Of a DNA stretch of 64,000 nucleotides, positions 11,776 to 49,944 are shown piece by piece. The translations under genes were made by a program, and so were the position numbers. Within the stretch, counting starts at the first letter, position 1, and every line of letters begins with the position of its first letter. This DNA is from Candidatus Omnitrophota bacterium (GTDB lineage: Bacteria; Omnitrophota; Gorgyraeia; Gygaellales; JAHJCI01). A model generated the notes under the pieces. It was not told where the DNA came from and did not search any database. It was given only the letters and a program-made list of their open reading frames with translations. The stretch covers positions 4,024 to 68,023 of the forward strand of contig JBHPGP010000002.1 of the NCBI GenBank assembly GCA_042570305.1, given 5' to 3'.

Positions 11776-11943
11776 TCAAAACCCCTTTCTTATGGCAACC
11801 GTACTTAAGGAATTTCCTTAGTTAACTATATACTAATCTTAAATGCAAATTTTAATTTTTCAAGGAAAATTTGTATAGTCTTGCTTAAAGAAAATGGTTT
11901 ACAGCAATAGGAGTATAGGTATAATATATGCTTACCGTAAATT

Positions 11944-12018
11944 GGTGGGTGTAGCTCAGCTTGGCAGAGCACTTGACTGTGGCTCAAGTTGTCGCGGGTT
12001 CAAATCCCGTCACCCACC
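11944..12018 (+). tRNA. tRNA-His (anticodon GTG) with encoded G-1
   Basis: Extra 5' G (G-1) opposite discriminator C73. Acceptor GTGGGTG/CACCCAC, anticodon stem CTTGA/TCAAG with loop CTGTGGC, T-arm GCGGG-TTCAAAT-CCCGT. Confidence 0.85.
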
Positions 12019-12021
12019 CTT

Positions 12022-12150
12022 GAAATTTTTGCTGCACAAAAATTTCACTTCTCATCCTAGCCCGATAAATTTCGAAAATTTGCCTACCTATAAAAAACAA
12101 TTTAGGTCGCAAATTTGAAGGAATTTATGGGCTGATTAGGATGAGAAGTG
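12022..12150. repeat. Nested inverted repeats / structured region immediately 3' of tRNA-His
   Basis: Perfect palindrome gaaatttttg-ctgca-caaaaatttc (12022-12046). 18-bp inverted repeat cacttctcatcctagccc (12046-12063) versus gggct[gatt]aggatgagaagtg (12129-12150) with a ~65-bp loop containing a further aaatttgc/gcaaattt inversion. Confidence 0.6.
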
Positions 12151-12534
12151 GAGTTGGTTAAAAATTTAGTGCCCAAGCCTGCCCAGAAATTATCAAAGAG
12201 AATTTTGTGGCGATTAGGCGAGGGGCAAATATTGGAAGAATCTAAGGCTATGAAGCAATACCGATCATAGCCCTTTTTTGTCTCTTTAGTCTGTGCCTAG
12301 GGCGTCCTCTTGTCGAATATTACTGCCCGGCCAGAACGAGAATACCCTTGCCGTTTGCGCTGGAAACTTAAAGGTTCTCGTATAAGTTTCATTGACGAAA
12401 TAAAACATACTGCTCAAAGATTTTGTATAGTTGAAATATCGTTTTATAGTGTATAATAACCATTGCAGGATTCCTCATTCTAATAGTTTTATCTTTCGAG
12501 CGACTCACTTGCGGAAAAGGAGTAGGAGCGTGCA

Positions 12535-15500
12535 TTGTCTCTAAAGTTTCTTCAAGACTATATTTTACCCCTTAAAATGCGTCTCGGCGCCTTTCTGCAT
12601 TGGAACAGGATCACCGAGGAAGAGCCTCTTCGTGCCGAGCTTTTTAGCATAGAGCAGTTCAAGGCGCATGCGAAAAAACTGGCCCAAGGGCATATGGTCA
12701 GTTACAAAAAGGGGCACAACAAATTATTGCTGCGGCTGAAGCAAAATGAAAATGTCCTTGTTGAGATCTATAAACTCCTCAACGAGACCGGTAAATCCAA
12801 ACGAAAGATCTCGCCGGCCGGAGAATGGCTTCTCGATAACTACTATCTTATTGAGGAGCAGATAAGGCTTGCCCAGAAATGCCTTCCGGAACATTACATC
12901 CGTGAATTACCCCACCTTTTTCAGGGGCCGCTTGCCGGCTATCCGCGTGTGTATGAGCTTGCTATGGAGCTTGTCTCGCACGGCGACGGACGGCTGGATA
13001 GCCAGGGGCTTACGGAGTTTGTCACGGCCTATCAAACCGTTAACCACTTGAAGCTTGGTGAACTGTGGGCTATTCCTATCATGTTGCGGCTGGCGCTTAT
13101 TGAGAATTTAAGGCGCGTGTCCTCCCGGATGATCGTGGCACAAACGGAAAGAGATAAAGCGAATTATTGGGCGACGCGAATCCTCAAAGTTTCGGCCAAA
13201 GATACCGATGGGGTGGTCTTTGAGATTGTGGCGATGTCCAGGGCTAACCCTCTGCTTTCTGATGCTTTTGTCGCGGAATTCATGCGGCGTTTGCATGGTC
13301 AAATCCAGGTGTTCAATCTTCCCTTTGCCTGGTTGGAAAAGAAACTCGCGGAGCAGGGAGACACCCTTGAGAGGATAATTCGGGCGACCAGCCAAAAACA
13401 GGCGTCTGACCAGGTTTCGATCGCGAACACGATCGGGAGCCTGCGTCTTCTGGAGATCACAGATTGGCATGATTTTGTCGAAGCGCTCAGCGTTGTGGAA
13501 AAGCTTTTGGGCCAGGACCCATCTGGGGATTATCGCAGGATGTCTTTCGCTACCCGTGATCGCTACCGGCATGTCGTTGAGCAATTTTCCTTGAGAAGCA
13601 AAATCACAGAAGAAGAGATCGCGGCGCGCGCGATCCGGCTCGCCAAGACCGGGGAAAAAAAATTCGGCCCCGGTCACGTCAAGGCGCATGTAGGTTTTTA
13701 CCTGATCGACCGGGGATTGGAGCTTTTTTGCCGCGAATTAGGCCTGCGCTTACCTCTGCGCCAGTACCTGCAGGCCAAGAAAACGTTTTGGCCGTCTGTT
13801 TTGTTTTTCGGCGCTATTACTTTTATAACTCTTGCTCTGACCGTCGGTATTTTGTATTGGGTGCAGCCTGCGGGGCTATTGAGTTGGCGGCGGCTTGTTT
13901 TATTCTGGGTGTCGCTTTTCCTTGTGACAAGCCAGACGGCGGTCTCGATGGTGAACTGGTCTTTCATGATGCTCGTAAGACCCAAAAACCTTCCCCGGAT
14001 GGACTTTTCAGAAGGAATTCCCGCCTATGCCCATACCTTGGTCGTGGTCCCTTGTATAATTAGTGATGCGCGGACAGTCGACTCTCTACTCGAAGGGTTG
14101 GAGGTTCGGTATTTGGCGAATATTGACGCGAATACGGATTTCGCACTCTTAACTGATTTTTGCGATGCCAAGCAGGAGACGATGCCTGAAGACGAAGTGC
14201 TTCTGGCGCAGGTTAAGGATGGCGTCGCAAAGTTGAATTACAAATACCGAAGGAAAAAAGAATATGTTTTTTGTCTTCTGCATAGGCCTCGCAGGTGGAA
14301 TGAAAGAGAAAAGCTGTGGATGGGGTATGAACGCAAGCGGGGCAAGCTCGGGGATTTGAACGCGCTCCTGCGCGGAAAAGGAGATGGCCGCTTCAGTGTG
14401 ATTCTCGGGGACACTCAGAGGCTTCAGGATGTGCAATATGTTATTACGCTGGATGCGGATACTCGGACCTCCCGCAATGCCGCGCGAGAGCTCGTGGGGG
14501 TTATCGCGCATCCCCTGAACCGGCCGGTCTATGATGAAAAAAAACAACGGGTTGTTTCTGGATACGGGATTCTCCAGCCCCGGGTCGAACCCAGTTATCC
14601 CGGGAAAACTCCTTCGTTGTTCGCGAAGATTTTCGGAGGCGATACGGGAATCGATCCGTATACCAAAACGGTTTCCGATGTTTACCAAGATGTTTTCTTC
14701 GAAGGGTCATTTATCGGGAAAGGGCTTTATGACGTGGATTCCTTCGAAAGATCCATGGAAGGCCGTTTTCCGGAAAATGCCATATTGAGCCATGATCTTT
14801 TGGAGGGGTGTTACGCCCGGTCCGGGCTTGTGACCGATGTCCAATTTTACGAAGGATATCCCCAGGGGTATCTTAAGGATGTTAGCCGCAGGCACCGTTG
14901 GATCTGCGGGGACTGGCAGATTCTTTCCTGGCTGTTTGCCTCGGTCCGCGTTCACAGTGGCGCAAAAGTCAAAAATCCGATTTCCTTCCTGTCGCAATGG
15001 AAGATCATGGATAATCTGAGGCGAAGCCTCGTTCCTTTCGCAACCGTTCTTTTGTTTTTATCAGGATGGATCTGTTTTCAGCCGTCTTGGATATGGTCGG
15101 TTTTGGTCCTCGCTCTCATGGGTTTTCCCCTTGTGCCGATGTCCTTGGCGGAGGCGGTGAGGAAATCCGAGCTTTTGACCTTCAAGACCCATGTTGGCCT
15201 GGTGGTATCCTCATGCAGGAAGAACCTGCTCAGGTTATTCTTCTCATTCGTTTTTTTGCTGCACGAGGCGGTCTATTGTTTGGACGCGATCGCGCGGACT
15301 TTGTGGCGAATGCTGGTGTCACGCAGACGGTTGCTGCAATGGAAGACTTTTCTTGAAGCAGAAGCCTCCTTATCGGAACGTATTTCTGGCTACTACCAAA
15401 GCATGTGGTTGGCACCGCTTGCCGCCGCTGTGCTGCTGGTCTTTTTTTTGGCGGTATTCCAGCGTTTCGATGGATTAACTTTGTTTTTTGTAAGTCTGTG

Positions 15501-18500
15501 GTTCGTTTCTCCCGCGGTGGCGTACGGCATCAGCCAGCCCGCATCTCCCCGTAAGATCATGCTTTCCAAAGCCCAGACCATTTTTCTCAGAAAGCTTGCC
15601 CGGAGGAACTGGGCGTTCTTTGAGAATTTCGTTACCGAGAAGGATCACTGGCTGCCCCCGGACAATTTTCAGGAAGTACCTGTTAGCGGTCTGGCTCATA
15701 GGACGTCTCCAACGAATATCGGCCTGTCGCTTCTTGCGAATTTGACGGCTTATGATTTTGGCTATGTTTCAATGGGGATGATGTTCCAGCGGACGGAAAA
15801 AACATTCGTCACCTTGAACCTTATGGAACGGTTCAGGGGGAATTTTTACAACTGGTACAATACGGAGACGCTGAAGCCTCTGGCACCTCTCTATATCTCA
15901 TCGGTGGATAGCGGAAACCTGGCCGGCCATTTGCTGGTCCTGCGTGCGGGGCTTAGGGAAATGAGTTCTCGGAAGATCATCTCCGCGAAGATGTTTGACG
16001 GGCTGGGAGATACCCTGGAGATCCTTTATCAAAGTGTGGCGGAGTTTGAGAAAAGCCGAAAGAGCACTGTCGTCGAACCCCTTCGGGGAGTTTCCCAAAG
16101 AGTCGAGCAATTTCAGGAAAAGTGTAAGTCTTCTCCCGCGCGTCTTTCGGAAATCTATACGTTTTTGCGCCAGCTTTCAACGGATATTTCCAAGGTTCTC
16201 ACGGGCTTGGATCAGAAACACTATGACCAATCTAAAAAATGGGCCCGCGCCTTGGAACGGCAGTGTTACGATTTTCTGGAGGATATGTCTTTTATCGCTC
16301 CCTGGATTTTGCTTGCGCCGGAAATACCGGGTATGTGGGAGGCAGGGGATGAAAAACAGCAGCAGCGACTCGGTCAGCTCCGGGAGGCTCTTCGGTCTTT
16401 GGACGAGATCCCCGCGCTTGGGGAAGTGGCCAGGCTTGAGCAGAAGCTAGTTCCGCTTATCGAGGAGATCACCGGGGCCATGCTGGTCGCGGATGATGAG
16501 TCAAAAAGGGCCCACGAATGGTTTTTAAAACTCCGCGAGACGATCAAGGATGCCGGAACACGGTCCGCCGAACGGATTAAAGCCATCGATTATATCGTGC
16601 TGCGGTGTAACGAGATATCTGGCATCGAATATGAATTCCTGTATGATAAGGGTACACACCTTCTTTCCATCGGATACAATGTCAGCGAGCATAAGGTGGA
16701 TCGGGGTTGTTATGATTTACTGGCGTCCGAGGCCCGGTTTTGCAGCTTTGTCGCGGTCGCTCAAGGGAAAATGCCTCAGGATCATTGGTTCAAGCTTGGT
16801 CGGATGATTGCAAAACTCGAAGGGGATCCTGTTCTGATCTCCTGGGGCGGGTCGATGTTTGAATATCTCATGCCTCTCTTGGTGATGCCGACCTATGCCG
16901 GGAGTCTGCTGGAACAGACCTACAAGGCCGCGGTTAGCGGTCAGATCCGGTATGCGGCCAATAACAATATTCCCTGGGGGATCTCAGAGTCCTGTTACAA
17001 TAAGTTCGATGCGAATATGGTTTACCAGTATCACTCTTTCGGAGTCCCGAATATGGGTTTCAAACCGGGACTCGCGGAGGATCTGGTCGTGGCCCCCTAT
17101 GCTTCGATGCTGGCCCTGATGGTTGAGCCGGAGAAGGCCTGTGAGAATCTCGAGCGCTTATCCTCGGAAGGGGTCGCAGGGATATATGGTTTCTATGAAG
17201 CGGTCGATTACACGCCTGCGCGTCTTGCTCCGGATCAAAACCGGGCGATCGTGAAATCCTACATGGCGCATCATCAGGGTATGAGTTTCTTGTCTCTGGC
17301 CTATGTGCTTCTGGACCAACCTATGCAAAGGCGTTTTCTTTCCGAGCCGATGTTTCAAGCAGCCGAGCTGCTTCTGCAAGAGCGCATCCCGGTCAGCGAA
17401 CCGTTCCTCTACGATTTTGAAGTAACCGGAATGCTGAGAAAATTCGGAGACCGGGAAACCCTTTTGCGGGTGTTTACGACTCCTCAAACTCCGGTGCCTG
17501 AAGTCCACCCGCTCTCCAACGGCCGCTACCACGTGATGGTAACCAACTCCGGAGGAGGCTATAGCCGCTGGCAAAATGTCTCCCTGACGCGCTGGTGTGA
17601 AGATGCGGCTCTGGACAATGACGGGACATTTGTTTATCTGCGGGATGTGGAGTCTGGTCAGTTCTGGTCTTCGGCATATCAGCCGACACGAAAAAATCCA
17701 AAGAGCTATGAAGCCTTGTTTTCTCAGGCTTGGGCGGAGTTCAAGCGCAGGGATCAGCAGATCGAAACGCATACCGAGATTGCGGTTTCTCCGGAAGATG
17801 ACATAGAACTACGCCGGGTGACGATCACCAACCGTTCACGTAATAGGCGTGTCATTGAAGTGACCAGTTACGCGGAAGTTGTGTTGAATGATCTCTCAAG
17901 CGATCAGGCCCACCGGACATTCAGTAATCTGTTCGTCCAGACCGAAATTATCAGGTCTCACCAGGCGATCCTTTGCAAGCGGCGTCCGCGCTCCGATAAA
18001 GAAACATTCCCCTGGATGCTGCACCTGATGGCAGTCCACGGGAATGCGCTCGTGGGTGCTACTTATGAAACTGACCGCAACAAGTTCATCGGACGAGGCC
18101 GCACGCTGGCGGATCCCGCAGCGATGGAGGGGCAGGACAATCTTTCGGACAGTGAGGGTTCTGTGCTTGACCCGATCGTTTCGATACGCAGCCGGATCGA
18201 ACTGCTGCCAGAGGAATCAGCCACGATCGATTATGTGACCGGAATATGCGAGAGCCGGGAATCCGCGCAGGCGCTTATGGAAAAATACAGGGACCGGAAT
18301 CTGGCCGACCGCGTTTTTAACCTGGCGTGGACTCACGGGCAGGTTGCCTTGCAGCAGATCAATACGACGGAGGCTTCCGCTCAGCTTTACGGCCGTCTGG
18401 CCAGCGCCATTTTGTACGCGAATCCCGCCTGGCGGTCGAGCGCGAGTATTTTGCGGCGGAATAACCGGGGCCAGTCTGATCTTTGGGGGTACAGTATTTC

Positions 18501-21324
18501 TGGGGATCTGCCGATCGTTCTCGTCCGCATCGAAAGCCAGGACAATATTAATCTCGTCGTGCAGATGCTGCAGGCGCATGCCTATTGGCGGATGAAAGGT
18601 CTGGCGGTTGATCTGCTGATATGGAATGAAGATAGTTCCATTTATCGCGATAGCCTGGGAGAGAGGATCATCGGGTTGATCGCCGCGAATGCCAAGGAGA
18701 TAGCGGGCCAGAATGGCGGTATTTTTTTAAGGCGCGCCGATCAGATATCCGAAGAGGACCGGATTCTCATACAAACGGTCTCCCGGATTATTATTTCGGA
18801 TCGCGGGGGGACGCTGGCGGAGCAGTTGGAGGATATGGTCCAGCCAAAGGTGAATTTCCTGCCGTTCGTTGCAACCAGGCAGGATGATCCGCAAGAAGAG
18901 GCCGAGGGTCCGGCGGAGCGTTCCGATCTTGTTTATTTTAATGGTGTAGGAGGATTTACCGGGGATGGGAGGGAATATGTGATCAAGACCTCGAGCTCGA
19001 ATACCACTCCCGCTCCGTGGGTCAATGTGCTGGCAAACCGGAATTTCGGTACGGTGATTTCCGAAAGCGGGAGCGCCTACACCTGGAGCGAGAACGCGCA
19101 TGAATTTCGCTTAACGCCCTGGAAAAACGATCCTGTTTCGGACGCTTCGGGAGAGGCGCTCTATATTCGCGATGAGGAGAGCGGAAGGTTCTGGTCTGCG
19201 ACCCCTCTTCCCGCGACGGGGAAGACCGGTTATATCTCGCGCCATGGATTCGGGTACAGCATTTTTGAGCACACCGAAAACGGGATAGTTTCGGAATTAA
19301 CGGTTTTCGTTTCCCTGGAGGATCGGGTCAAGTTCTCTGCCCTGAAGATCAGGAATATCTCTGGGCGCCGTAGGCGTCTTTGCGCGACGGCGTTTGCTGA
19401 ACTGGTCATGGGGACGTTCCGGGATAAATACCACATGCATATCCTGACCGAGATCGATCCCAAAAGCGGAGCTCTGTTTGCCCGCAATCCTTATAACAAG
19501 GAATTTCCCGACCGGGCTGTTTTTTTGGATGTGAGTGAACCGACGCGATTTGTGACCGGGGACCGGGTCGAATTTATCGGAAGGAACGGAACGCTGGCAT
19601 CGCCTTCCGTGATGCGAAGGGATAGGCTTTCCGGAAGAGTGGGCGCGGGGTTTGATCCGTGCGTTGCCACGCAGGTAAAATTTGAGCTTGATGACGGCCA
19701 GCAGAAAGAGATCGTTTTTACCTTGGGCTCCGGAAAAACTCCGGATGACGCCAGGGATCTCATCCGGCGTTTTGGCGGTATCGATGCGGCGCGTGATGAA
19801 CTTGAAAGGGTGTGGGAATATTGGAAACGGACCCTTGGTGTTGTGTATGTGGAAACGCCCGATGCCTCGATCAATATTCTCGTCAACGGTTGGCTGCAAT
19901 ATCAGGTTATAAGCTGTCGTCTCATGGGGCGAAGCGGTTTTTATCAATCCGGCGGGGCTTTCGGCTTTCGGGATCAGCTCCAAGATGTGATGGCGTTGAT
20001 CCATTCGAAACCGGAAATGGTCCGGGAGCAACTGCTGGACTTTGCCGCGCACCAGTTTGCGGAAGGAGATGTGCAGCACTGGTGGCATCCGCCATCCGGC
20101 CGAGGAGTCCGTAGCCGGTGTTCGGATGATTATTTATGGCTCCCCTTCGTGACCTGTCTGTATGTCGAGAATATCGGGGATACGGGGATTCTTGATGAAA
20201 CGGTCGGGTTTCTGGAAGGGCCCCTGGTTAATCAGGAAGAAGAATCTTACTACGATATGCCCAGAGTCTCCGTCCGTTCGGGGACACTGTACGAGCATTG
20301 TGTTTTAAGCGTGAAAAGGGGGTTGCAGTTCGGCGCGCATGGCCTTCCTCTCATGGGAAGCGGGGATTGGAATGATGCAATGAATCTGGTTGGGCGCGAA
20401 GGGAAAGGCGAAAGCGTCTGGCTTGCTTTTTTTCTCTTCGATGTTCTTCAGTCGATGGCGGTCTTGGCCGCTCAGCGTGGGGATAAGGTCATCTTGGAGC
20501 TCTGCGCTGAGGAGGCAAGGAAACTATCTAGGAATATTGAAGAGCATGCCTGGGACGGCGAGTGGTATCTCCGGGCCTATTTTGACAATGGGGATCCTCT
20601 GGGATCTTCCCTGAACAGCGAATGCCGGATCGATTCGATCCCCCAATCCTGGGCGGTGCTTTCAGGCGCGGCTCAGCGGGAAAGGGCCAGTCGGGCCATG
20701 GGTCAGGTGGATCGGCAGCTTGTCGACAGGAAGCACGCGCTGGTGAGATTGTTCGACCCTCCTTTTGATAAGGCTTCCCCTAACCCGGGATACATCAAAG
20801 GCTATGTTCCCGGCGTGAGGGAGAACGGGGGACAGTACACGCATGCTGCGGTCTGGGTGGCGATCGCGTTCGCGGTCTTAGGGGATACAAAGCGGGCTTG
20901 GGAGTTGTTTCATATGATCAACCCGGTGCATCATTCTGATGACGCGGATAAGTGTGCCGTTTACAAAGTGGAGCCGTTCGTGATGGCCGCAGATGTGTAT
21001 GCCTCTCAGGGCCTTGCCGGACGCGGGGGATGGACCTGGTACACCGGGTCCGCGGGTTGGATGTATCAGCTTATAGTGAAGCATTTGCTGGGGGTTCGGT
21101 TGAAAGTGGACCGGATCTATTTCGAGCCCTGCCTTCCAGCGGGTTGGCCCTCTTGGAGGCTGCATTACCGCTACCGGGAGACCTTCTATCATATTACTTT
21201 TGCGTGTTCAGGATCGTCAAATCATATAACGTCTATTGCGGTGGATGGTGTCGCGCAGGAGGAAAAGGTTGTCCGGCTCATTGATGATCGAGTAGAGCAT
21301 TCAGTGGAAGTGCAGATTGAATGA
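12535..21324 (+). CDS. cgs: Cyclic beta-1,2-glucan synthase (Cgs/NdvB/ChvB-like; N-terminal region with TMs and GT84 glycosyltransferase, C-terminal GH94 glucan phosphorylase-like domain)
   Basis: Single 2929-aa ORF with a TTG start preceded by AGGAG. TM helices around aa 430-470 and 830-900 flank a DxD-containing GT region (LDADTRTS...GYGILQPRV). The C-terminal third has cellobiose-phosphorylase/GH94-like blocks (YFNGVGGFTGDGREYVI, APWVNVLAN, TPWKNDPVSD). Size and order match Brucella/Agrobacterium Cgs (~2.8-2.9 kaa). Confidence 0.8.
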   Translation: MSLKFLQDYILPLKMRLGAFLHWNRITEEEPLRAELFSIEQFKAHAKKLAQGHMVSYKKGHNKLLLRLKQNENVLVEIYKLLNETGKSKRKISPAGEWLLDNYYLIEEQIRLAQKCLPEHYIRELPHLFQGPLAGYPRVYELAMELVSHGDGRLDSQGLTEFVTAYQTVNHLKLGELWAIPIMLRLALIENLRRVSSRMIVAQTERDKANYWATRILKVSAKDTDGVVFEIVAMSRANPLLSDAFVAEFMRRLHGQIQVFNLPFAWLEKKLAEQGDTLERIIRATSQKQASDQVSIANTIGSLRLLEITDWHDFVEALSVVEKLLGQDPSGDYRRMSFATRDRYRHVVEQFSLRSKITEEEIAARAIRLAKTGEKKFGPGHVKAHVGFYLIDRGLELFCRELGLRLPLRQYLQAKKTFWPSVLFFGAITFITLALTVGILYWVQPAGLLSWRRLVLFWVSLFLVTSQTAVSMVNWSFMMLVRPKNLPRMDFSEGIPAYAHTLVVVPCIISDARTVDSLLEGLEVRYLANIDANTDFALLTDFCDAKQETMPEDEVLLAQVKDGVAKLNYKYRRKKEYVFCLLHRPRRWNEREKLWMGYERKRGKLGDLNALLRGKGDGRFSVILGDTQRLQDVQYVITLDADTRTSRNAARELVGVIAHPLNRPVYDEKKQRVVSGYGILQPRVEPSYPGKTPSLFAKIFGGDTGIDPYTKTVSDVYQDVFFEGSFIGKGLYDVDSFERSMEGRFPENAILSHDLLEGCYARSGLVTDVQFYEGYPQGYLKDVSRRHRWICGDWQILSWLFASVRVHSGAKVKNPISFLSQWKIMDNLRRSLVPFATVLLFLSGWICFQPSWIWSVLVLALMGFPLVPMSLAEAVRKSELLTFKTHVGLVVSSCRKNLLRLFFSFVFLLHEAVYCLDAIARTLWRMLVSRRRLLQWKTFLEAEASLSERISGYYQSMWLAPLAAAVLLVFFLAVFQRFDGLTLFFVSLWFVSPAVAYGISQPASPRKIMLSKAQTIFLRKLARRNWAFFENFVTEKDHWLPPDNFQEVPVSGLAHRTSPTNIGLSLLANLTAYDFGYVSMGMMFQRTEKTFVTLNLMERFRGNFYNWYNTETLKPLAPLYISSVDSGNLAGHLLVLRAGLREMSSRKIISAKMFDGLGDTLEILYQSVAEFEKSRKSTVVEPLRGVSQRVEQFQEKCKSSPARLSEIYTFLRQLSTDISKVLTGLDQKHYDQSKKWARALERQCYDFLEDMSFIAPWILLAPEIPGMWEAGDEKQQQRLGQLREALRSLDEIPALGEVARLEQKLVPLIEEITGAMLVADDESKRAHEWFLKLRETIKDAGTRSAERIKAIDYIVLRCNEISGIEYEFLYDKGTHLLSIGYNVSEHKVDRGCYDLLASEARFCSFVAVAQGKMPQDHWFKLGRMIAKLEGDPVLISWGGSMFEYLMPLLVMPTYAGSLLEQTYKAAVSGQIRYAANNNIPWGISESCYNKFDANMVYQYHSFGVPNMGFKPGLAEDLVVAPYASMLALMVEPEKACENLERLSSEGVAGIYGFYEAVDYTPARLAPDQNRAIVKSYMAHHQGMSFLSLAYVLLDQPMQRRFLSEPMFQAAELLLQERIPVSEPFLYDFEVTGMLRKFGDRETLLRVFTTPQTPVPEVHPLSNGRYHVMVTNSGGGYSRWQNVSLTRWCEDAALDNDGTFVYLRDVESGQFWSSAYQPTRKNPKSYEALFSQAWAEFKRRDQQIETHTEIAVSPEDDIELRRVTITNRSRNRRVIEVTSYAEVVLNDLSSDQAHRTFSNLFVQTEIIRSHQAILCKRRPRSDKETFPWMLHLMAVHGNALVGATYETDRNKFIGRGRTLADPAAMEGQDNLSDSEGSVLDPIVSIRSRIELLPEESATIDYVTGICESRESAQALMEKYRDRNLADRVFNLAWTHGQVALQQINTTEASAQLYGRLASAILYANPAWRSSASILRRNNRGQSDLWGYSISGDLPIVLVRIESQDNINLVVQMLQAHAYWRMKGLAVDLLIWNEDSSIYRDSLGERIIGLIAANAKEIAGQNGGIFLRRADQISEEDRILIQTVSRIIISDRGGTLAEQLEDMVQPKVNFLPFVATRQDDPQEEAEGPAERSDLVYFNGVGGFTGDGREYVIKTSSSNTTPAPWVNVLANRNFGTVISESGSAYTWSENAHEFRLTPWKNDPVSDASGEALYIRDEESGRFWSATPLPATGKTGYISRHGFGYSIFEHTENGIVSELTVFVSLEDRVKFSALKIRNISGRRRRLCATAFAELVMGTFRDKYHMHILTEIDPKSGALFARNPYNKEFPDRAVFLDVSEPTRFVTGDRVEFIGRNGTLASPSVMRRDRLSGRVGAGFDPCVATQVKFELDDGQQKEIVFTLGSGKTPDDARDLIRRFGGIDAARDELERVWEYWKRTLGVVYVETPDASINILVNGWLQYQVISCRLMGRSGFYQSGGAFGFRDQLQDVMALIHSKPEMVREQLLDFAAHQFAEGDVQHWWHPPSGRGVRSRCSDDYLWLPFVTCLYVENIGDTGILDETVGFLEGPLVNQEEESYYDMPRVSVRSGTLYEHCVLSVKRGLQFGAHGLPLMGSGDWNDAMNLVGREGKGESVWLAFFLFDVLQSMAVLAAQRGDKVILELCAEEARKLSRNIEEHAWDGEWYLRAYFDNGDPLGSSLNSECRIDSIPQSWAVLSGAAQRERASRAMGQVDRQLVDRKHALVRLFDPPFDKASPNPGYIKGYVPGVRENGGQYTHAAVWVAIAFAVLGDTKRAWELFHMINPVHHSDDADKCAVYKVEPFVMAADVYASQGLAGRGGWTWYTGSAGWMYQLIVKHLLGVRLKVDRIYFEPCLPAGWPSWRLHYRYRETFYHITFACSGSSNHITSIAVDGVAQEEKVVRLIDDRVEHSVEVQIE

Positions 21325-21737
21325 TCGCGGGATGGCCTGAAGAAATTTGTTGAGCCTGTTTTTAAATGAACACAGAAAATAAATCTGATCTCCACCCGTA
21401 TATAGACCAGTAAAGATAGTAATTCTTTAAAAAACATAATTATATGGTATAATAACATACATAAGCGGGATTAACGCCCAAACCTATCGGATGGTTTGGT
21501 GTAAGCTTGTGCTTAAGGAGGAGATATTGGCGAGAGATAATTATTCATATAAAAAGTATCAGAAAGAATTGGCCAGGAAAAAGAAGGCAGAGGCAAAGAG
21601 ACAAAGAAAACTGGATAAAAAAGCGATTGAGGCTACTCCTGAGTCTGTACAGGTCAACTCAAACTTAAATCTTTAGCAGAACTAATACCCGGCCATATCG
21701 GATTGGCCGGTATGCACTTACTGTGCAAGGAGGGAGC

Positions 21738-21902
21738 ATGGCATATCAGGGTGGTGGTGGGTTCGGCGGGTCACGGGAGATGCACAAGGCAGTTTGCTCG
21801 GAGTGCAAAAAAGAGTGCGAAGTCCCGTTTAAACCCAGAGACGATCGTCCGATATACTGCAGGGATTGCTATATAAAGCGCAAGAACGAAGGCCGCAGGT
21901 AA
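21738..21902 (+). CDS. Small zinc-ribbon protein (CxxC...PF.P...RP.YCxxC)
   Basis: 54-aa ORF absent from the track because it is under 60 aa: MAYQGGGGFGGSREMHKAVCSECKKECEVPFKPRDDRPIYCRDCYIKRKNEGRR. RBS agggag 7 nt upstream. Matches the small Zn-ribbon motif family. Confidence 0.5.
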   Translation: MAYQGGGGFGGSREMHKAVCSECKKECEVPFKPRDDRPIYCRDCYIKRKNEGRR

Positions 21903-21956
21903 CCATAGATTCCGCAGACGCAATACTTAATTGGCGCACAGCCTGATACCTAGAAT

Positions 21957-22310
21957 ATGAAAGGTATTACCGATCCCAATCTTATTTATTCTACTGACAG
22001 TGGCTCAATCTGTCCTGATTGTTCTAAGTCGCTCAAGGAGTGTATCTGCCGTGAAATAAAAAGGAACGCTTTACCCGAAACCAGCGGCAAGGTGAGGATA
22101 CGGCATGAGACTGCTGGTAGAAAAAATAAAGGTGTAACCATAATTTATGGTTTGTCTTTAAACCAGGAGCAGCTTGAGAAGTTGACTAAGAAATTAAAGA
22201 GCACCTTTGGCACAGGCGGAACTGTAAAAGATTACACAATTGAGCTGCAGGGTGACCAGCGAGGAAGAGTCAGAGTTGAATTATGCAGGCTGGGTTATAG
22301 AGATCTCTGA
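21957..22310 (+). CDS. yciH: Translation initiation factor SUI1/YciH family
   Basis: RKNKGVTIIYGLSL...LEKLTKKLKSTFGTGGTVKD..IELQGDQRGRVRVELCRLGY, the eIF1/SUI1 fold signature. Confidence 0.8.
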   Translation: MKGITDPNLIYSTDSGSICPDCSKSLKECICREIKRNALPETSGKVRIRHETAGRKNKGVTIIYGLSLNQEQLEKLTKKLKSTFGTGGTVKDYTIELQGDQRGRVRVELCRLGYRDL

Positions 22311-22513
22311 ATAGCGAGAGGTTTTCATACGAGAGGGAACACATTTTCAACTAATAAATATGTTGACAAATTCCGAAAATGATGTTATAGTAACCACGTA
22401 GTAAATAGAGGAGAAAATGTCTAAGCCGTCAGGCCGAAAAGTATTCGCCTTGCGGTTTTTTTTGTTTCTGCTGTTATTTGCTATAATTTAGCAAGAAGGA
22501 GGTGTAGTAAATA

Positions 22514-22714
22514 ATGGTAAAAGGAACAGTTAAGTGGTTCAGTAACCAGAAGGGTTACGGTTTTGTTACCCCTGAGTCAGGAGAAGATGTATTCGTGCAT
22601 CATAGCGTAATCCAGGGTGATGGCTATAAGTCTTTAGATGAGGGTCAAGAGGTCGAACTTGAAATCGAAACAGGCCCTAAGGGCAAACAAGCCACAAAGG
22701 TAGTAAAGTTGTAA
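22514..22714 (+). CDS. cspA: Cold-shock protein (CspA family)
   Basis: [33 protein letters not shown], with RNP1/RNP2 motifs. 66 aa. RBS aaggagg. Long 5' UTR. Confidence 0.9.
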
Positions 22715-22820
22715 TTCGTATCAGGTACAGGTCCGGCAATTATGCCGGGCCTTATTTTTAATCCTTCGACTTCGCTCAGGATTGATGGCGAGCAGAGTCG
22801 AAGCATCAAGGAGGTTGGAT

Positions 22821-23027
22821 ATGCATAAAGGACAAATAAAGAAGCTTATGCGCGAGAGGGGCTTTGGGTTTATCAGCGACACAGACGGAAGGGAAGTATT
22901 TTTTCATCAGAGTGGCCTGGTAGAGACTAAATTCGATACTTTGAATGAAGGCCAAGAGGTTGAGTTTGAAGTTGAAAATTCTCAAAAAGGCCCTCGGGCG
23001 ATTAATATAAGTATTCTCAAATCCTAA
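22821..23027 (+). CDS. Cold-shock domain protein (second Csp paralog)
   Basis: MHKGQIKKLMRERGFGFISDTDGREVFFHQSGL. RBS aaggagg. The track start at 22782 is upstream, but the ATG at 22821 is the better start. Confidence 0.8.
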   Translation: MHKGQIKKLMRERGFGFISDTDGREVFFHQSGLVETKFDTLNEGQEVEFEVENSQKGPRAINISILKS

Positions 23028-24856: not shown

Positions 24857-26242
24857 ATGTTGCTTTTTCCGCCCATAGGGCTGGAATATATAGCTACGAG
24901 CGCTAAGGGCCTGGTCGGTAAAATCACGCTTTTGGATCTGAGGTATGAAAATGATTTTGCCGAAGATACGGATAAGCTTCTTAAGTTTATATCCGAATCG
25001 GTTGATATTATCTGTGTCACTATCGGCTGGGACAGGCATTTTGAAGAAATCTGCCAGCTGCTTAACCGCTTGCCGGCTGGGATACCCTTAGTCATAGGCG
25101 GTTATAAAGCTACGGAAAAGGTAGAAGAACTTTTTAAAATTTGCCCTGCCATAGATATCATAGTCAGGGGCGAAGGCGAAGAGACAATACAGGAAATATT
25201 AAAGGGCATAGCGCCAAAAAATATCCTGGGTATTTCTTACAGGCGGGGGGAGCGGGTTATACATAATGCTAACCGTCCGCTTCCGGATGTTGATAAGCTA
25301 CCGGTGCCTGACCGAGCCCTCAGGCACAACGAATACATGATGGCAATAAACGGCATCAAATTAGGGAATCTTACTTTTGATTCGGTATTAAGCGCCAGGG
25401 GGTGCCCCTTTAATTGTAAATTCTGCACATTCAGTTTAAATCCCCTGGGTCAGAAAAGAAGCTATGCCGCGCGCCGCGTAAGCGACGTGGTTGAGGAAAT
25501 CCAAAGCTTGAAGGCAGACGTAGTGCTCTTCAGCGATGATAACCTTTTCGTCGATCCCAAGAGGGCAGAGGAAATTTGCGACCAAATCATTGAACGCAAG
25601 ATAAAAAAGCGCTTCATTGCTCAGGCACGTATTGAAATTGGCAGGCATCCAAGGCTGCTGGAGAAAATGGTGAAAGCCGGATTCAAGGCATTGTTGATCG
25701 GGATAGAATCTCCTCACGACTGGATACTGGAGCAGCTGAATAAAGGCTTCAATCAAGCAGCGATAAGAGAATATTTTGCGGTACTCAGGAAATATCCGAT
25801 TTTATACAGCGGTTATTTTATATACGGTAACATAGGGGAGAGCAAAGAGGAGATGCTTTATATCGCACAATTCGCCAAGGAGATAGGAGTCGATATTATT
25901 GCTACCAATAAATTAAGGATCGAGAAATTTTCCCCTTTAAAGGAGCTTGCCGAAAAAACACCGGGTTATCATGTAACCGCAAAGGGAGAACTGTATTCCG
26001 ATACGTATAGCCACGCGGCCTTGAAGAAAATAGGCAAAAAGATAAAATTCTCTTTTTATACCCCCTCCAGATATCTAAAGATAGCCTGGAAGAATGTTTT
26101 CGTAACAAGGTTCTATACCTTTAATGAGGTACTGCTGATTTTAATTGCCGCGCCCCGTCTCATTACGAGCATCATTGCCAGGGAAAGGCGTAGAGGAAAG
26201 CTTAAGGATTCCTTAAGGCGCACCTTTATTAGGAATAGCTGA
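24857..26242 (+). CDS. B12-binding (class B) radical SAM protein, paralog
   Basis: GCPFNCKFCTF radical SAM motif. B12-binding-like N-terminal region (LVIGGYKATE...VRGEGEE). 461 aa. Adjacent to its paralog at 23155. Confidence 0.7.
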   Translation: MLLFPPIGLEYIATSAKGLVGKITLLDLRYENDFAEDTDKLLKFISESVDIICVTIGWDRHFEEICQLLNRLPAGIPLVIGGYKATEKVEELFKICPAIDIIVRGEGEETIQEILKGIAPKNILGISYRRGERVIHNANRPLPDVDKLPVPDRALRHNEYMMAINGIKLGNLTFDSVLSARGCPFNCKFCTFSLNPLGQKRSYAARRVSDVVEEIQSLKADVVLFSDDNLFVDPKRAEEICDQIIERKIKKRFIAQARIEIGRHPRLLEKMVKAGFKALLIGIESPHDWILEQLNKGFNQAAIREYFAVLRKYPILYSGYFIYGNIGESKEEMLYIAQFAKEIGVDIIATNKLRIEKFSPLKELAEKTPGYHVTAKGELYSDTYSHAALKKIGKKIKFSFYTPSRYLKIAWKNVFVTRFYTFNEVLLILIAAPRLITSIIARERRRGKLKDSLRRTFIRNS

Positions 26243-26308
26243 AAAGCGCATTCAATTTCGCACAAGTCCGCTTTCCAGGAAAATTTTGCTTGCGGGGTTT
26301 TATTAAGG

Positions 26309-26330
26309 GTATAATTTGACTATAGAAATT
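26309..26330 (+). promoter_or_regulatory. Conserved promoter/leader module copy B
   Basis: gtataatttgactatagaaatt. See copy A (23095-23116). Confidence 0.5.
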
Positions 26331-26426
26331 CAATTTTTTTGACTGAACCTGACTTTAGAAGGGCTTAATATGCCCTGTGCAACTAAAAAAGCTAAAGACA
26401 AATTCTTGGCTTGAGGGAAGAATTGG

Positions 26427-28343
26427 ATGGATAGGCAAGAGGCAGCGGAAGAATTTCTCAATAGTTTAATCAGAACCTTGAATAAGGCTTCTTTTTATGC
26501 AAATGACCACCCGGCATTTTTAAAAGCTGTTGATGATTTTAGAAATACAGTAGATTCAACCCACCGTTTTATAGACCCCATCGTAATCGGCACTACCATC
26601 AATTCTATATTCGTCGACCAAAGAGAATTTTCTGGTCAGCATTACGAGGATTTAGCCAAAAGGCTTCATCAGCGCAGAATCAAAATCATGCAGATTAGAA
26701 AAGGCACAACACTTGAAGAATTATCGCTTTTCTTAAATAAAATATCAGCTCCTCTTAAAGATATCATTAAAAGCGGAGGCATAGCCCACATTTTAAATAA
26801 AGAAAATATGCCCCATCTGTCCATAGAAGAGCTGGACTATTCCGAATTATTAAAAACAGATACAGGCGAATATAAAGATATATGGGTATATTTATTAGGC
26901 GACGCCCTGGAGAAACAGGATCACTCTAAAGTTATCCAGCTGTCAGATATTTTTGAGAAAATGACGAGATATTACACAATCAAGGAGCTTTTAGAAAATG
27001 ACGAGCTTAGAGAAACCCTGCAAAAGTTTTTTAACTACATCAAGGATAGGGATAAGGAAAGATTTTCGCAATGCTCCCTGAAAATAGCAGAGCATATATT
27101 CGTTATCAAGGATGACGCTTTTCAGGTAGAGCTGGAGAAAATGAGAGCATTATTCAATAGTTTTACCGAAAGTGATTTTGCCGAAATGTTAACCAATGAG
27201 GTTTTGAATGTAGATGCATTTGATAGCTCCGGCCTGGACCTATTCTCTAAAATTACCAGTGCAGAGATACACCCCGCTATTGCTTCTTTAACGGCAAAGT
27301 CGCTTAATCAGAGGGTTCTTGGTGATAAGCAGAAGATAAGAAATAAAATAGAAAGCCTCCTGCGCGATAGCGATAAATCCTCCTGCTCCCAGGTATATCT
27401 AGATACCCTTTCTTCATTCTTAAAGAGTATCTCCGGTGCAAGAGGCTTTTCCTTTGACCACGATTTGGCATATGCCAATTATCGCTTAATTCTGCTTGAT
27501 CTGCTTCTTCGATGGCAAAGCAAAGACAGGTTAGAGGCAATTATAGAAGAAGCCTCAAAGATATTGAAAAATAAAGACCAGGGTGTGGACGTTACATATA
27601 TTAAGCTTCTTGCGGACATTATAAAGAAGAAAAAAACGGAGGCTCCCCAGATGTCGTTACTATTGGACGGGCTGGATAAACAGATAACCCATTTTGTAGA
27701 AAACAATATCTGGGACGAAGAGCCTTCTGCGGATTTTCAATATCTCTCAGATTATTTAGAGTCCAGCACGTTGGGGGTTGATTTATACCTCAATAGGATA
27801 TTCGATGAAAATAAAGTGAATGCCGCAGTATTGAAATTATTTTTAAAATTTTTTCCGGACAGCCTGCATCTTTTTAACATGAATTTAAAGAAGAGAATTT
27901 CTGATATAGACTTCATCAGTAATCTTATCAAGAGCTTGAAAGCAGTGGATAGCCCTTTGGGCTTGAATATATTAGAGCAAATATATTTATTCTCTGAAAA
28001 TTACATTAAGATAGAGGTTTTAAGGGCGATGCAGGACATGGGTGCATTCGACAAAGAGTTCTTATTATCAATTCTACAAAAAGATAATGCCTTTTTGAAA
28101 AAAGAAGCCCTGCTGGCGTTAATGAAAGATGAAAAGGCCAAGGGACAGGCTCTGGAAGTTCTTTTCTCCACCAAAGGTTCCCGGAGAACCGTAAATAGAG
28201 CCTTACTGGAAAATATAATACTGGTTGAGGAGATGGGGTTAAAAGAGGCAAAAGATTATTTGAAGGCTGTTAGCAAAAATCTCTTTTTCTGGAATTGGGG
28301 CATAAAAAGAAGAATCAGGGAGATTCTCAGTAAATGGAAATAA
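26427..28343 (+). CDS. Hypothetical protein (638 aa) sharing an N-terminal module with the downstream HD protein
   Basis: No catalytic motif recognised. N-terminal ~110 aa align by eye with the N-terminus of ORF 28334 (FY..HP.F...IG....F....EF...LA..L..R.I.I.......EEL..F). Overlaps the next gene, so operonic. Confidence 0.5.
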   Translation: MDRQEAAEEFLNSLIRTLNKASFYANDHPAFLKAVDDFRNTVDSTHRFIDPIVIGTTINSIFVDQREFSGQHYEDLAKRLHQRRIKIMQIRKGTTLEELSLFLNKISAPLKDIIKSGGIAHILNKENMPHLSIEELDYSELLKTDTGEYKDIWVYLLGDALEKQDHSKVIQLSDIFEKMTRYYTIKELLENDELRETLQKFFNYIKDRDKERFSQCSLKIAEHIFVIKDDAFQVELEKMRALFNSFTESDFAEMLTNEVLNVDAFDSSGLDLFSKITSAEIHPAIASLTAKSLNQRVLGDKQKIRNKIESLLRDSDKSSCSQVYLDTLSSFLKSISGARGFSFDHDLAYANYRLILLDLLLRWQSKDRLEAIIEEASKILKNKDQGVDVTYIKLLADIIKKKKTEAPQMSLLLDGLDKQITHFVENNIWDEEPSADFQYLSDYLESSTLGVDLYLNRIFDENKVNAAVLKLFLKFFPDSLHLFNMNLKKRISDIDFISNLIKSLKAVDSPLGLNILEQIYLFSENYIKIEVLRAMQDMGAFDKEFLLSILQKDNAFLKKEALLALMKDEKAKGQALEVLFSTKGSRRTVNRALLENIILVEEMGLKEAKDYLKAVSKNLFFWNWGIKRRIREILSKWK

Positions 28344-29698
28344 TAGAGAAGGTTAAAGAACTGATTGTCGATTTGATTGCCTGCACGCAAATGATTAAGC
28401 TTTATTCCGGCAGGCATAAGATATTTGAGGACTCTATTGATAAGTTATATGAGAGTGCGCAAGAAACTTTAAAAGAAAGGGATGAGCTGGTTATAGGGAT
28501 TGTTGGCGATGAGTTCGTCTTTGAAAAAGAGATTTTCTTCGAGCTGAGTAAAACATCTCTCGCCGGGATACTAATCGCCTCTCTCAGGGCAAGGGGTATA
28601 GAGAGAATTATTTTTTATCCGCAGCTGCATAAAGAGGAGCTGGAAATGTTCATTACTTTTGTAGTCAATCCCCTAAAAGAACAAATTGAAGGCAATTCAC
28701 AGAAATACCTGGCTGCCCTAGGGATTCGCAACATAGCCGTAGATAAGATTAGGACACCTAATGCCCCTGCGGAAACCGTGATAAAGAAAAAGTTACAAGA
28801 GGCAACAGAAAGTTTTGGAATATATGAAGATTATTCTAATAAAGCCTCTGAATATTTGGAAGCGCCGTTAAATAATGCTGTCATAGACCACCTTGCTTTA
28901 AGGATTGTCCTGCTCAAGATTATTGAGAATTTATCTGTCCGGAAGGAGTTTTTGAAATTTTCCGTAATAAAAAGGGACGAGGCAGCAAGATTTTTGCATT
29001 TCGTAAATGTTTCGATTTTGGCAATGTATTTATCTTCTAAACTGGGATTTTCTCAGAATGATACCCTGGATATAGGCATCGCAGCATTATTCCATGATAT
29101 CGGCAAGATTTATATTTCCAGGGAGTTGCGCAGCAGTAATAATAGATTAACAAAGGAGGAATCAGCCGATATTAAAAGCCACACCCAATTGGGGCCAGCG
29201 CTGCTTTTAAAATATGTTGATACTTTGGGCATTTTGCCGGTGGTAGTTTCGTTTGAGCATCATTTAAGATACGATTTAAAGGCTTATTCTGAATTATTGT
29301 CTGGATATAAACCTCACATTGCCTCTTTGATTATTTCTATATGCGATGTGTACGACGCTCTTTGCCAAAGGCGAAGTTATAAATACGGCTATCCCCCGGA
29401 TGCCATCTATAACCTGATGATGAAGGGAAGGGGCAGCGCCTTTGAGCCGGATCTTTTGGATACCTTTTTTAGAGTAACAGGAGTATGGCCTATAGGCACA
29501 GTCGTATTATTAAGTGACAACAGAGTTGCCATAGTGCGCCAGGAAAATGAAGACGACATATTCAGGCCTAAAGTGGAAATTGCAGAATCTCAGGACAAAA
29601 ATGAACTTATTGATTTAAAGGATAAGAAAGCTGAGCTCAAGATAGAGCGCGCCCTCAATCCTTTAACAGAAGGCAAAGTTTATCTCCGCTTAATTTAA
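28334..29698 (+). CDS. HD-domain phosphohydrolase, degenerate HD-GYP type
   Basis: HDIGK...HHLRYDLKAY...D..DAL: HD metal-binding residues are present, but the HHExxDGxGYP signature is degenerate (GYP lost). Confidence 0.7.
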   Translation: MEIIEKVKELIVDLIACTQMIKLYSGRHKIFEDSIDKLYESAQETLKERDELVIGIVGDEFVFEKEIFFELSKTSLAGILIASLRARGIERIIFYPQLHKEELEMFITFVVNPLKEQIEGNSQKYLAALGIRNIAVDKIRTPNAPAETVIKKKLQEATESFGIYEDYSNKASEYLEAPLNNAVIDHLALRIVLLKIIENLSVRKEFLKFSVIKRDEAARFLHFVNVSILAMYLSSKLGFSQNDTLDIGIAALFHDIGKIYISRELRSSNNRLTKEESADIKSHTQLGPALLLKYVDTLGILPVVVSFEHHLRYDLKAYSELLSGYKPHIASLIISICDVYDALCQRRSYKYGYPPDAIYNLMMKGRGSAFEPDLLDTFFRVTGVWPIGTVVLLSDNRVAIVRQENEDDIFRPKVEIAESQDKNELIDLKDKKAELKIERALNPLTEGKVYLRLI

Positions 29699-29783
29699 AA
29701 CCTGGTCGCGAGGCGCCGGGAAAGTTTTTGAAATTAAGAAACATAAGGCCAGGCAAACAATCAGTGGCCTAAGAGGCGTTCAG

Positions 29784-30221
29784 ATGAAAAGAAATTATAC
29801 GATATTAGCCTTAATTTTGATAATTTCCATAGTATTTTCTTATCGCGCAGGGAGCAATACAAGGCAGGCAATAGCCAAAATTCATAATAAAATATACAGA
29901 TTTGAATTAGCAGAGACCACTGAGGAAAGATCTAAGGGGCTGATGCATAGAGAGCAGCTTGATGATGACGGCGGGATGCTGTTCATTTTTAACAAGAGCG
30001 ATTATTTAACCTTTTATATGAAGAATACCTTTATTCCCCTTGAAGTCGCCTTTATTGACGAAAATTTTACGATAGTCGATTTCCGGGCATTAAAGCCTTT
30101 GGATTTAACTTATATCACCTCCAGGGCTAAGGCGCTTTATGCGCTTGAAGTAAATAAGGGATTTTTTGAGAGGGTAGGCTTAGGGGTCGGGGATAGGCTT
30201 GAGTTTGTGATTGCTGAATAA
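29784..30221 (+). CDS. DUF192 (COG1430) family protein with signal anchor
   Basis: GLMHRE...GMLFIF....FYMKNTFIPLEVAFID....VD, typical DUF192 blocks. Confidence 0.55.
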   Translation: MKRNYTILALILIISIVFSYRAGSNTRQAIAKIHNKIYRFELAETTEERSKGLMHREQLDDDGGMLFIFNKSDYLTFYMKNTFIPLEVAFIDENFTIVDFRALKPLDLTYITSRAKALYALEVNKGFFERVGLGVGDRLEFVIAE

Positions 30222-49315: not shown

Positions 49316-49400
49316 TACCCCTTCTTAAGGGACACCCTTTTTGCTGTTCGAGGGACACCCTTTTAGCTAATCGGCAGGGTGTCCCTTGTAGGGTTTAATA
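49316..49400. repeat. REP-like palindromic elements (GGGACACCC core), three copies
   Basis: aagggacaccctt, gagggacacccttttagctaa and the inverted agggtgtccctt. The last two form a hairpin. Confidence 0.65.
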
Positions 49401-49931
49401 TATAACTTCAGGTTGGCTTAAAATACTAAAAGCATTATCTGAAAACATTCTCTCTTGCCAGCTACTCCATGAATAACCTCCAGGGGAAGAGGCCAAACTT
49501 GCCCTGACTGGATTTAATTCTATATATTTCAGGCAATCTATAAGATATTTGTCTTTCTGGATTACCATACTTTTGAATCTACCTTGCCATAAACGCCCCA
49601 CCTTATTATATTTATTGTTGAACCAGGAAGTATAAGTTTGAGTTAAGCCCTGCATTATTTTAGCAAGGTCATTAGTTTTTTTAATATCAATAATTAAATG
49701 GATATGATTAGGCATTAGGCAGTAAGCGTACAATTTAAATTTGTATCTGTTTTTGTAATGTTTACATATTTCCAAGTATTTTTCAAAATCTGCGCCTTCT
49801 ATAAAGATTTTTTGTTTTTGGTTACCACGATTGATAATATGGTAACAGGCATTTTCTAAAAGCATTCTTTTGGTTCTCGGCATATTTATCACCTCCTGCT
49901 TAAATAGACGAAGAAGAGCAGAATTTCTCAC
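49395..49931 (-). mobile_element. IS200/IS605-like Y1 (HuH) transposase, REP-associated tyrosine transposase (RAYT) type
   Basis: 178 aa with HuH motif (PNHIHLII) and a conserved N-terminal YHIINRGN block. Flanked on both sides by inverted GGGACACCC REP elements. The downstream copy ttagctaaaagggtgtccc is the exact reverse complement of the upstream gggacacccttttagctaa. Confidence 0.75.
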
Positions 49932-49944
49932 AAAATTTTTGCAA

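Follow-up and report, generated by a model that had tools for sequence, protein, structure and literature searches.

A 64-kb stretch of DNA from Candidatus Omnitrophota bacterium (contig JBHPGP010000002.1; "the window" below is this whole stretch of 64,000 nucleotides [nt]) carries, just downstream of a tRNA-His gene, one giant gene whose base composition differs visibly from that of its neighbors. The gene, cgs, encodes a predicted cyclic β-1,2-glucan synthase, and the locus raises the question of where this gene came from and how it reached its present position. The first-pass annotation had read it as a recent single-gene acquisition from a donor of higher guanine-plus-cytosine (GC) content, possibly a proteobacterium, by an AT-rich genome that might otherwise lack the pathway. 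Our analysis indicates that cgs belongs to a clade confined to Omnitrophota and that the crown alleles of this clade, the window allele being one of them, probably spread laterally among Omnitrophota lineages that had already diverged. For three proteins of the window, the 2929-amino-acid (aa) Cgs protein, the H+-pyrophosphatase (PPase), and a radical-SAM (rSAM) protein, a match of 100% is recorded at NCBI under the name Candidatus Omnitrophota bacterium.

The only open reading frame (ORF) between tRNA-His and a run of host-type small genes is cgs. The Cgs/NdvB/ChvB architecture that had been proposed for its product was confirmed by domain searches, by comparison with solved structures, and by individual residues. 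Pfam returned a GT2-like match at aa 635 to 864, weak and below the cut-off, a Glycoamylase/GH144-like domain (PF10091) at aa 1396 to 1591, and two GH94 supersandwich domains (PF06165) together with a GH94 catalytic domain (PF17167) at aa 2429 to 2853. The top match among solved structures was the full-length Agrobacterium tumefaciens Cgs determined by cryo-electron microscopy (chains 8RF0 and 8RF9; 2022 bits, in two stretches), followed by the Thermoanaerobacter cyclization domain 8WY1 and then by GH94 phosphorylases. With about 2830 aa, the Agrobacterium protein (Cgs/ChvB) falls in one length class with the window protein. The domain order of the group formed by this enzyme, Brucella Cgs, and rhizobial NdvB, namely, an N-terminal domain, two transmembrane segments, GT84, four transmembrane segments, a cyclase domain, and GH94, is complete here within one polypeptide, and hydropathy gave the expected layout of two segments N-terminal of the glycosyltransferase domain and about four after it.

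Four segments of the window protein were aligned residue by residue to 8RF0 and 8RF9, and the roles of the Agrobacterium residues were taken as given by Sedzicki et al. 2024 (PMC10901819). All 11 implicated residues are kept. Within GT84, the UDP-binding and DxD residues D527 and D624/D626 of the Agrobacterium protein correspond to D541 and D640/D642 (TLDADTR), the catalytic base D739 corresponds to D754 (SHDLLEG), R773 of the RW motif is aligned to R788/W789, and the primer tyrosine Y694, located in GIDPY of the IF1-homology loop, is aligned to Y709, again in GIDPY. The cyclase residues S1101, D1104, and E1300 are represented by S1122, D1125, and E1399 and the GH94 catalytic residues D2393 and D2528 by D2480 (GFRDQLQD) and D2614 (GDWND). 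The cyclization domain of the T. italicus synthase (8WY1; GH189; PMC10834661) aligns with window aa ~1040 to 1620 (E = 8e-129), the motifs SPTNIG and VDSGNL being common to both; 8WY1 is, however, an isolated domain of a Firmicute enzyme, whereas the window's domain is embedded in a full synthase. Similarly, the last ~790 aa of the window protein can be aligned over their full length with GH94 cellobiose and chitobiose phosphorylases (e.g., 2CQS and 3QDE; E ~1e-91), which are free-standing and soluble, while the window module would be the length-control domain of a membrane synthase. The assignment of the ORF as a cyclic β-1,2-glucan synthase, although read from sequence, is secure. The protein has 7994 database matches, and the source databases already call its homologues cyclic β-1,2-glucan synthetase; the enzyme family is well described and very widespread, and the window gene adds one member to it.

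By homology to the Agrobacterium enzyme, the membrane-embedded GT84 domain would glucosylate its own tyrosine, Y709, and extend a β-1,2-glucan chain from UDP-glucose, the C-terminal GH94 phosphorylase would trim the chain to length, and the central cyclase domain would free it as a ring. An unlinked ATP-binding cassette (ABC) exporter would then take the ring to the periplasm; in contrast to the Agrobacterium system, no exporter gene of the Cgt/ChvA/NdvA type was found among the ORFs of the 64-kb window scanned with Pfam. At the most divergent Omnitrophota locus that we retrieved (L083, 16715 to 25247), the genes 3′ of cgs encode an outer membrane factor, a membrane fusion protein, and a MacB-type ABC transporter, and the same run also includes genes for a MATE transporter, for a PilZ protein, and for a GH94 phosphorylase of 778 aa that stands alone. 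Together, these genes may serve to export and process glucans.

The composition of cgs is indeed atypical. Its GC content (52.8%) and its GC content at third codon positions (GC3; 60.3%) are the highest GC values in the window, where the other 45 ORFs average 44.6% GC (standard deviation [SD], 3.5; maximum, 51.2) and 48.1% GC3 (maximum, 59.2). When the genes were cut into chunks of 300 codons, all nine chunks of cgs (GC3, 0.573 to 0.663) lay above all 28 host chunks (maximum, 0.553; Mann-Whitney p = 4e-6). The codon-usage distance between cgs and host genes, 0.86 against a median of 0.56, is exceeded at 1 of 18 low-GC loci of other phyla (top ~6%). The first-pass annotation was thus right that cgs differs significantly from its host and that spurious ORFs are in excess: eight of at least 120 aa lie inside the 8.8-kb gene versus six across the remaining 55 kb. 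The term GC-rich holds only in relative terms (53% versus 44%), the shift being real but moderate. The island, which had been drawn from 11944 to 21490, is the ORF itself, roughly 12700 to 21300; the segment from tRNA-His to the start of cgs (11944 to 12534) is AT-rich (37 to 40% GC), though it lies within that interval.

How much of this excess speaks for foreign origin depends on its parts. The coding sequence of the host has 44.7% GC, the Cgs protein written in host codon usage would give 48.0%, and 52.8% is observed; amino acid composition (K, I, and N are scarcer and R, W, V, and H more frequent) accordingly gives +3.3 points and synonymous codon choice the other +4.8. Among the 165 cgs loci fetched in all (L001 to L171), those serving as composition controls came from scans of genome and metagenome contigs, belong to other phyla, are mostly ≤56% identical, and were used for composition and not for synteny. 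At the 26 low-GC control loci, the amino acid effect averages +2.4 points and the synonymous effect +1.4 (SD, 2.0), the latter reaching 4.8 at 3 of the 26 and lying near zero in Bacteroidota and many others, which places the synonymous excess of the window in about the top tenth. Approximately 40% of the island signal is amino acid composition, which recurs in most phyla and makes up most of the effect in low-GC genomes. GC content alone therefore overstates the foreignness of cgs genes, and the evidence for transfer is carried by the synonymous component together with the contrast in synonymous divergence (dS) described below.

The relatives of the window protein placed it firmly within its phylum. 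The top 24 Cgs matches, with 68 to 86% aa identity, are Omnitrophota wherever the source names them, and they are followed by Elusimicrobia (61 to 66%), Spirochaetia (61%), and NC10 (56%). Among the matches listed, no species-representative genome of another phylum exceeds 56%, and proteobacterial Cgs proteins have about 41 to 55%; the host here is, moreover, an uncultivated Omnitrophota bacterium, in which product and role are predicted from the gene. In a neighbor-joining tree the Omnitrophota sequences form a monophyletic clade, sister to the Elusimicrobia and Spirochaetia sequences; its branches are deep, and the window allele falls within its shallow, comb-like crown. The nearest known allele is already at a dS of 0.42 and 86% aa identity. 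A gene nested in this way was not recently received from Proteobacteria, and since cgs is widespread within Omnitrophota, the idea of a genome otherwise devoid of the pathway lost its footing as well. Full-length cgs does travel on proteobacterial plasmids (123 records, including Sinorhizobium, Pantoea, Paracoccus, and Serratia), a point in favor of a proteobacterial-type donor, but these copies are at most 46% identical to the window protein. No full-length Cgs homologue was found among phage records. Taken together, the donor and the timing of the model of a recent island are largely refuted. Of the 183 plasmids with any cgs match, 58 are predicted to be conjugative.

The strongest evidence that cgs has moved comes from dS. 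Among the alleles of the window, L081 (ERZ27247363), L082 (GCA_043800555.1), L084 (GCA_018812325.1), L085 (ERZ27248961), L087 (GCA_041650675.1), and L170 (GCA_020047475.1), cgs dS is 0.38 to 0.69 and the pattern is star-like. Host genes of the same or closer genome pairs range from a dS of ~0.9 to saturation and, with the exception of one comparison, lie at about 1.1 or more. The closest host relatives of the window that were found, L088 (GCA_964592485.1) and L089 (GCA_964588765.1), are syntenic with it and have PPase proteins at 86 to 88% aa identity; seven syntenic genes compared with L088, five of them also with L089, nevertheless gave dS values from 1.3 to saturated, and the rSAM gene gave 1.08 between the window and L172. 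Where both kinds of gene could be compared within one pair of genomes, the contrast was direct. Between the window and L085, the Band_7 pair is saturated (proportion of synonymous differences [pS], 0.80 to 0.84) and cgs has a dS of 0.58; between L081 and L085, the Mla genes range from 1.9 to infinity and cgs has 0.65. Distances at fourfold-degenerate sites agree (0.28 to 0.34 for cgs, 0.45 to 0.67 for host genes). The closest database proteins to the PPase and rSAM proteins of the window are at 88% and 86%, yet seven cgs alleles lie at a dS of ~0.5. The L171 allele (78% aa identity) has a dS of 1.4 to 2.2, about the level of host genes. A mosaic or recombinant structure inside cgs was also considered and rejected, as divergence is even along the gene.

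The contexts of the gene add to this contrast. At all eight Omnitrophota cgs loci fetched for context comparison, the surrounding genes differ. DNA homology between the window and its five closest relatives begins ~120 to 235 nt 5′ of the start codon and ends 0 to 65 nt past the stop codon. Within this block, the promoter and the leader are conserved despite different upstream genes (Table 1): the promoter, GTGTATAATAA, consists of TG plus TATAAT at 12450 to 12457, a ribosome-binding site, AGGAG, follows at 12524 to 12528, and the TTG start codon, 6 nt 3′ of it, is kept in L081, L084, and L087, whose sequences were read. The leader has no Rfam match and no conserved RNA consensus structure, on which grounds a regulatory RNA was rejected. 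Given that cgs dS is so far below host dS and that contexts differ, we conclude that cgs has probably moved among Omnitrophota lineages. Two marks of horizontal exchange coincide at this locus, divergence discordant between cgs and host genes and atypical codon usage (+4.8 synonymous points). The gene would have been present in Omnitrophota for long, and one group of alleles would later have spread among lineages already diverged, the mobile unit being cgs together with the promoter, leader, and TTG start that belong to it. Such spread would account for that share of the GC excess which lies in synonymous codon usage, the remainder being amino acid composition. Of the proposed recent horizontal acquisition, the lateral movement is thus supported by dS and codon usage, but its recency is not: with dS of at least 0.4, the transfer is old.

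That the conserved segment was merely joined to foreign flanks during metagenome assembly or binning is barely credible. All the sequences are metagenome-assembled genomes or metagenome contigs, which leaves room for such errors; in eight independent assemblies, however, cgs lies inside contigs of 23 to 868 kb whose flanks are continuous, the DNA difference of ~15% between alleles is too large for collapse, and the promoter and leader belong to the same block as the gene.

Several observations weigh against lateral spread among Omnitrophota, and some of them would fit vertical inheritance only. Under that explanation, cgs has been resident since the Omnitrophota ancestor, its GC, GC3, and low dS are intrinsic to the gene, caused by amino acid composition and by selection on synonymous sites in a very long membrane-protein gene, and its contexts differ by fast rearrangement. 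The GC excess is family-wide, since cgs is richer than its flanks at 62 of 67 loci of other phyla (92.5%; mean, +3.6 points), and therefore gene-intrinsic bias certainly contributes. The Cgs identity ladder (86% to 68%) resembles that of PPase (88% to 75%), and synteny is generally poor across these genomes. Part of the context is shared: the window and L087 both have the order tRNA-Arg(TCT)-DUF748-...-tRNA-His-cgs, and a Band_7 gene or pair recurs 3 to 23 kb from cgs in the window, L082, and L085 (in L082 and L085 a DUF3192-Band_7 group a few kilobases away, in the window a Band_7 pair at 23 kb). The host divergence rests on ~13 gene comparisons from short flanks and not on whole genomes, and one of them, DUF3192 between L082 and L085, has a dS of 0.87, near the cgs value of 0.55. 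Furthermore, no integrase, recombinase, or other mobility gene occurs among the flanking genes, and no att site was found, the last 21 nt of tRNA-His being without a second copy in the window at ≤3 mismatches. Finally, the codon usage of the window cgs fits no sampled host set well (distances of 0.71 to 0.84 versus ~0.43 for a native-looking case), and no donor lineage was identified for this reason. An L087-like lineage was tried as the source and rejected; its host GC3 matches cgs, but its full codon-usage distance is no better than those of other hosts.

Vertical inheritance alone is in our view unlikely, although it retains some weight. The dS of cgs is half to less than a third of that of every compared host gene, including those of closer host relatives. 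The weak codon bias of cgs (effective number of codons [Nc], 52.6) makes it unlikely that selection on synonymous sites is the cause. Native-looking cgs genes in L083, L087, and several Bacteroidota lack a synonymous GC excess, which is therefore not obligatory for cgs, and across the cluster the GC content of cgs stays nearly constant (49.5 to 56%) while that of the flanks ranges from 40 to 53%. The shared context fits an old chromosomal position, at which replacement of an allele would be more likely than new insertion; the synteny with L087 favors replacement of a resident allele, and seven differing contexts favor insertion or rearrangement. The window itself holds no sign of how cgs was inserted. 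No empty site was found: in L172, retrieved by way of the downstream rSAM gene (84%), the upstream context is unrelated, in L087 the tRNA-His site is occupied by cgs, and the L088 and L089 sequences, retrieved by way of PPase, do not include the tRNA-His locus. In L170 (2165 to 6634) and L171 (1808 to 6420), the region upstream of cgs has ~42% GC and holds genes of defense or mobile type, among them those for DNA methyltransferases, HATPase_c_3 proteins, a ThsB-TIR protein, and an rve_3 integrase; as the downstream flank has 51 to 53% GC, cgs lies there at the edge of a variable region.

The position behind tRNA-His is the remaining part of the question. The tRNA gene is located immediately upstream, as annotated, 516 bp from cgs; it has a sigma-70-like promoter at 11898 to 11925 (scan, 11/12 match) and is 93.5% identical to the tRNA-His that precedes cgs in L087. 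The nested inverted repeats reported behind it are real. For the region from 12020 to 12290, the predicted fold (−92 kcal/mol; z = −7.2) consists of a ~145-nt hairpin and then a terminator-like hairpin, and the latter probably ends the tRNA-His transcript. The arms of the long hairpin carry CACTTCTCATCCTA (12046 to 12059; reverse complement at 12137 to 12150). An 11- to 13-mer of these arms also occurs upstream of cgs in L081 and L084, in unrelated flanks, and a 19-mer at 12214 to 12232 is exact in L081 (recurring motifs at 9687 to 9743 in L081 and at 9620 to 9630 in L084). Motifs shared with other cgs loci begin at 12046, and the short ones common to L081 and L084 begin 29 nt after the tRNA. 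The hairpin region matched no Rfam family, and the element is not repeated downstream of cgs. A same-strand tRNA gene within 1.2 kb upstream of cgs is present at 3 of 7 crown loci, ~300 to 500 nt away (tRNA-Ser in L084, tRNA-His in L087), whereas the density of tRNA genes in all fetched flanks predicts ~0.08; across the whole family, 5 of 165 loci have one versus ~1.8 expected.

The tRNA hotspot suggested by the first-pass annotation finds some support in the recurrence of upstream tRNAs but none in an integrase or a duplicated tRNA 3′ end. The full proposal, a recent single-gene island that entered by site-specific integration at the tRNA-His 3′ end, is very improbable. It fits the geometry of tRNA, atypical segment, and host-type DNA, the frequency of tRNAs at the crown loci, and the start of the common motifs shortly after the tRNA. 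Apart from the phylogenetic objections given above and the missing mobility genes and tRNA 3′-end copy, the promoter and the TTG start are host-type and conserved. As for att candidates, a segment at 21995 to 22014 that agrees with the tRNA anticodon arm in 17/20 positions lies inside a conserved SUI1 ORF and is probably due to chance, and a 17-nt repeat at 12444 and 21440 was rejected as the local −10 promoter consensus, since GGTATAATAA is also present before other genes and in relatives. The locus resembles integrase-mediated tRNA-linked islands in its place just 3′ of a tRNA, its atypical composition, and its divergence discordant with host genes. It differs from them in lacking an integrase and an att direct repeat, in comprising a single gene with a host-type promoter, and in the edges of the shared block, which are ragged between relatives. 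One further explanation would keep the link to tRNAs, namely, a recombinase-less cassette of cgs, promoter, leader, and the upstream AGGATGAGAAG/TTAGGCGAGGGGCAAATAT motifs (in the window, the 145-nt hairpin) that was repeatedly inserted just downstream of tRNA genes or other gene ends across Omnitrophota lineages. We consider this quite doubtful; if true, it would mean an unrecognized targeting or capture mechanism and not ordinary recombination.

Table 1. Features of the cgs locus in window coordinates
Feature	Coordinates	Strand	Basis or remark
tRNA-His (GTG)	11945..12019	+	ARAGORN; Rfam, 65.5 bits
Long near-perfect hairpin right after tRNA-His	12023..12168	+	Fold z = −7.2; inverted repeat
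Terminator-like stem-loop plus T tract	12246..12279	+	Sequence and predicted fold; putative function
Conserved cgs promoter plus ~75-nt leader	12384..12534	+	~85% identical in L081, L082, L084, L085, and L087
cgs ORF	12535..21324	+	2929 aa, TTG start
Transmembrane segments 1 and 2	13798..13953	+	aa 422 to 473; hydropathy scan
GT84 glycosyltransferase domain	13975..15024	+	Alignment to 8RF9/8RF0
Transmembrane segments 3 to 6	15025..15531	+	aa 831 to 999; hydropathy scan
Cyclase (CY, GH144-like/GH189) domain	15652..17394	+	Alignments to 8RF0 and 8WY1; Pfam PF10091
GH94 phosphorylase region, two supersandwich domains plus catalytic domain	17491..21093	+	Pfam PF06165 and PF17167; alignment
Short 3′ tail, right edge of shared block	21325..21389	+	blastn block ends at 21324 to 21389 depending on the relative; shared k-mers
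Promoter of next, host-type small gene	21426..21453	+	−10 region (21440 to 21456) resembles 12444 to 12460 of cgs

The remainder of the window is a neighborhood of housekeeping and signaling genes, including SmpB, transfer-messenger RNA (tmRNA), queuosine genes, fumarase, RNase PH, and GGDEF/HD-GYP proteins, along with tRNA-Pro, tRNA-Arg, tRNA-His, two Band_7 genes, PPase, and type IV pilus genes. The near neighbors of cgs encode a histidine kinase, a DUF748 protein, a zinc finger protein, SUI1, and cold shock proteins. Directly 3′ of cgs (21491 to 23027) lie five very small genes, for a 61-aa basic protein, a 54-aa treble-clef zinc finger protein, a 117-aa SUI1/YciH homologue, and two cold shock proteins, several of them with their own promoter-like and terminator-like sites. 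The gene for an IS200-like Y1 transposase of 178 aa (ORF 49395 to 49931, minus strand; element, 49328 to 50005) has the lowest GC content in the window (32.6%), and the palindromic AGGGACACCCT is present in three copies on each side of it, the arrangement of transposases associated with repetitive extragenic palindromes (REP). This element is a true insertion with empty sites, because the flanking H+-PPase and sigma-70 genes are 55 to 56 nt apart in L088 and L089; a link between the element (49.4 to 50.0 kb) and the tRNA-His hairpin was rejected, the REP motif being unrelated. An AT-rich segment (26000 to 30200; GC, 0.38 to 0.40) encodes a 638-aa ORF without a Pfam match, an HD-GYP protein, and a DUF192 protein, and a 576-aa ORF at 39818 to 41548 also lacks a Pfam match. 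The tmRNA (1529 to 1940; Rfam, 186 bits) is read by ARAGORN with an unusually long tag peptide of 31 residues, and because the ORF at 1901 to 2878 overlaps its 3′ end, the true start of this ORF is probably further downstream.

Cyclic β-1,2-glucans are best known as osmoprotectants and as host interaction factors of Brucella, Agrobacterium, and rhizobia, and many Omnitrophota have been described as tiny, host-dependent bacteria. That Omnitrophota share an intact, conserved synthase and exchange it laterally suggests that cyclic glucans of the periplasm are important in this phylum, too.

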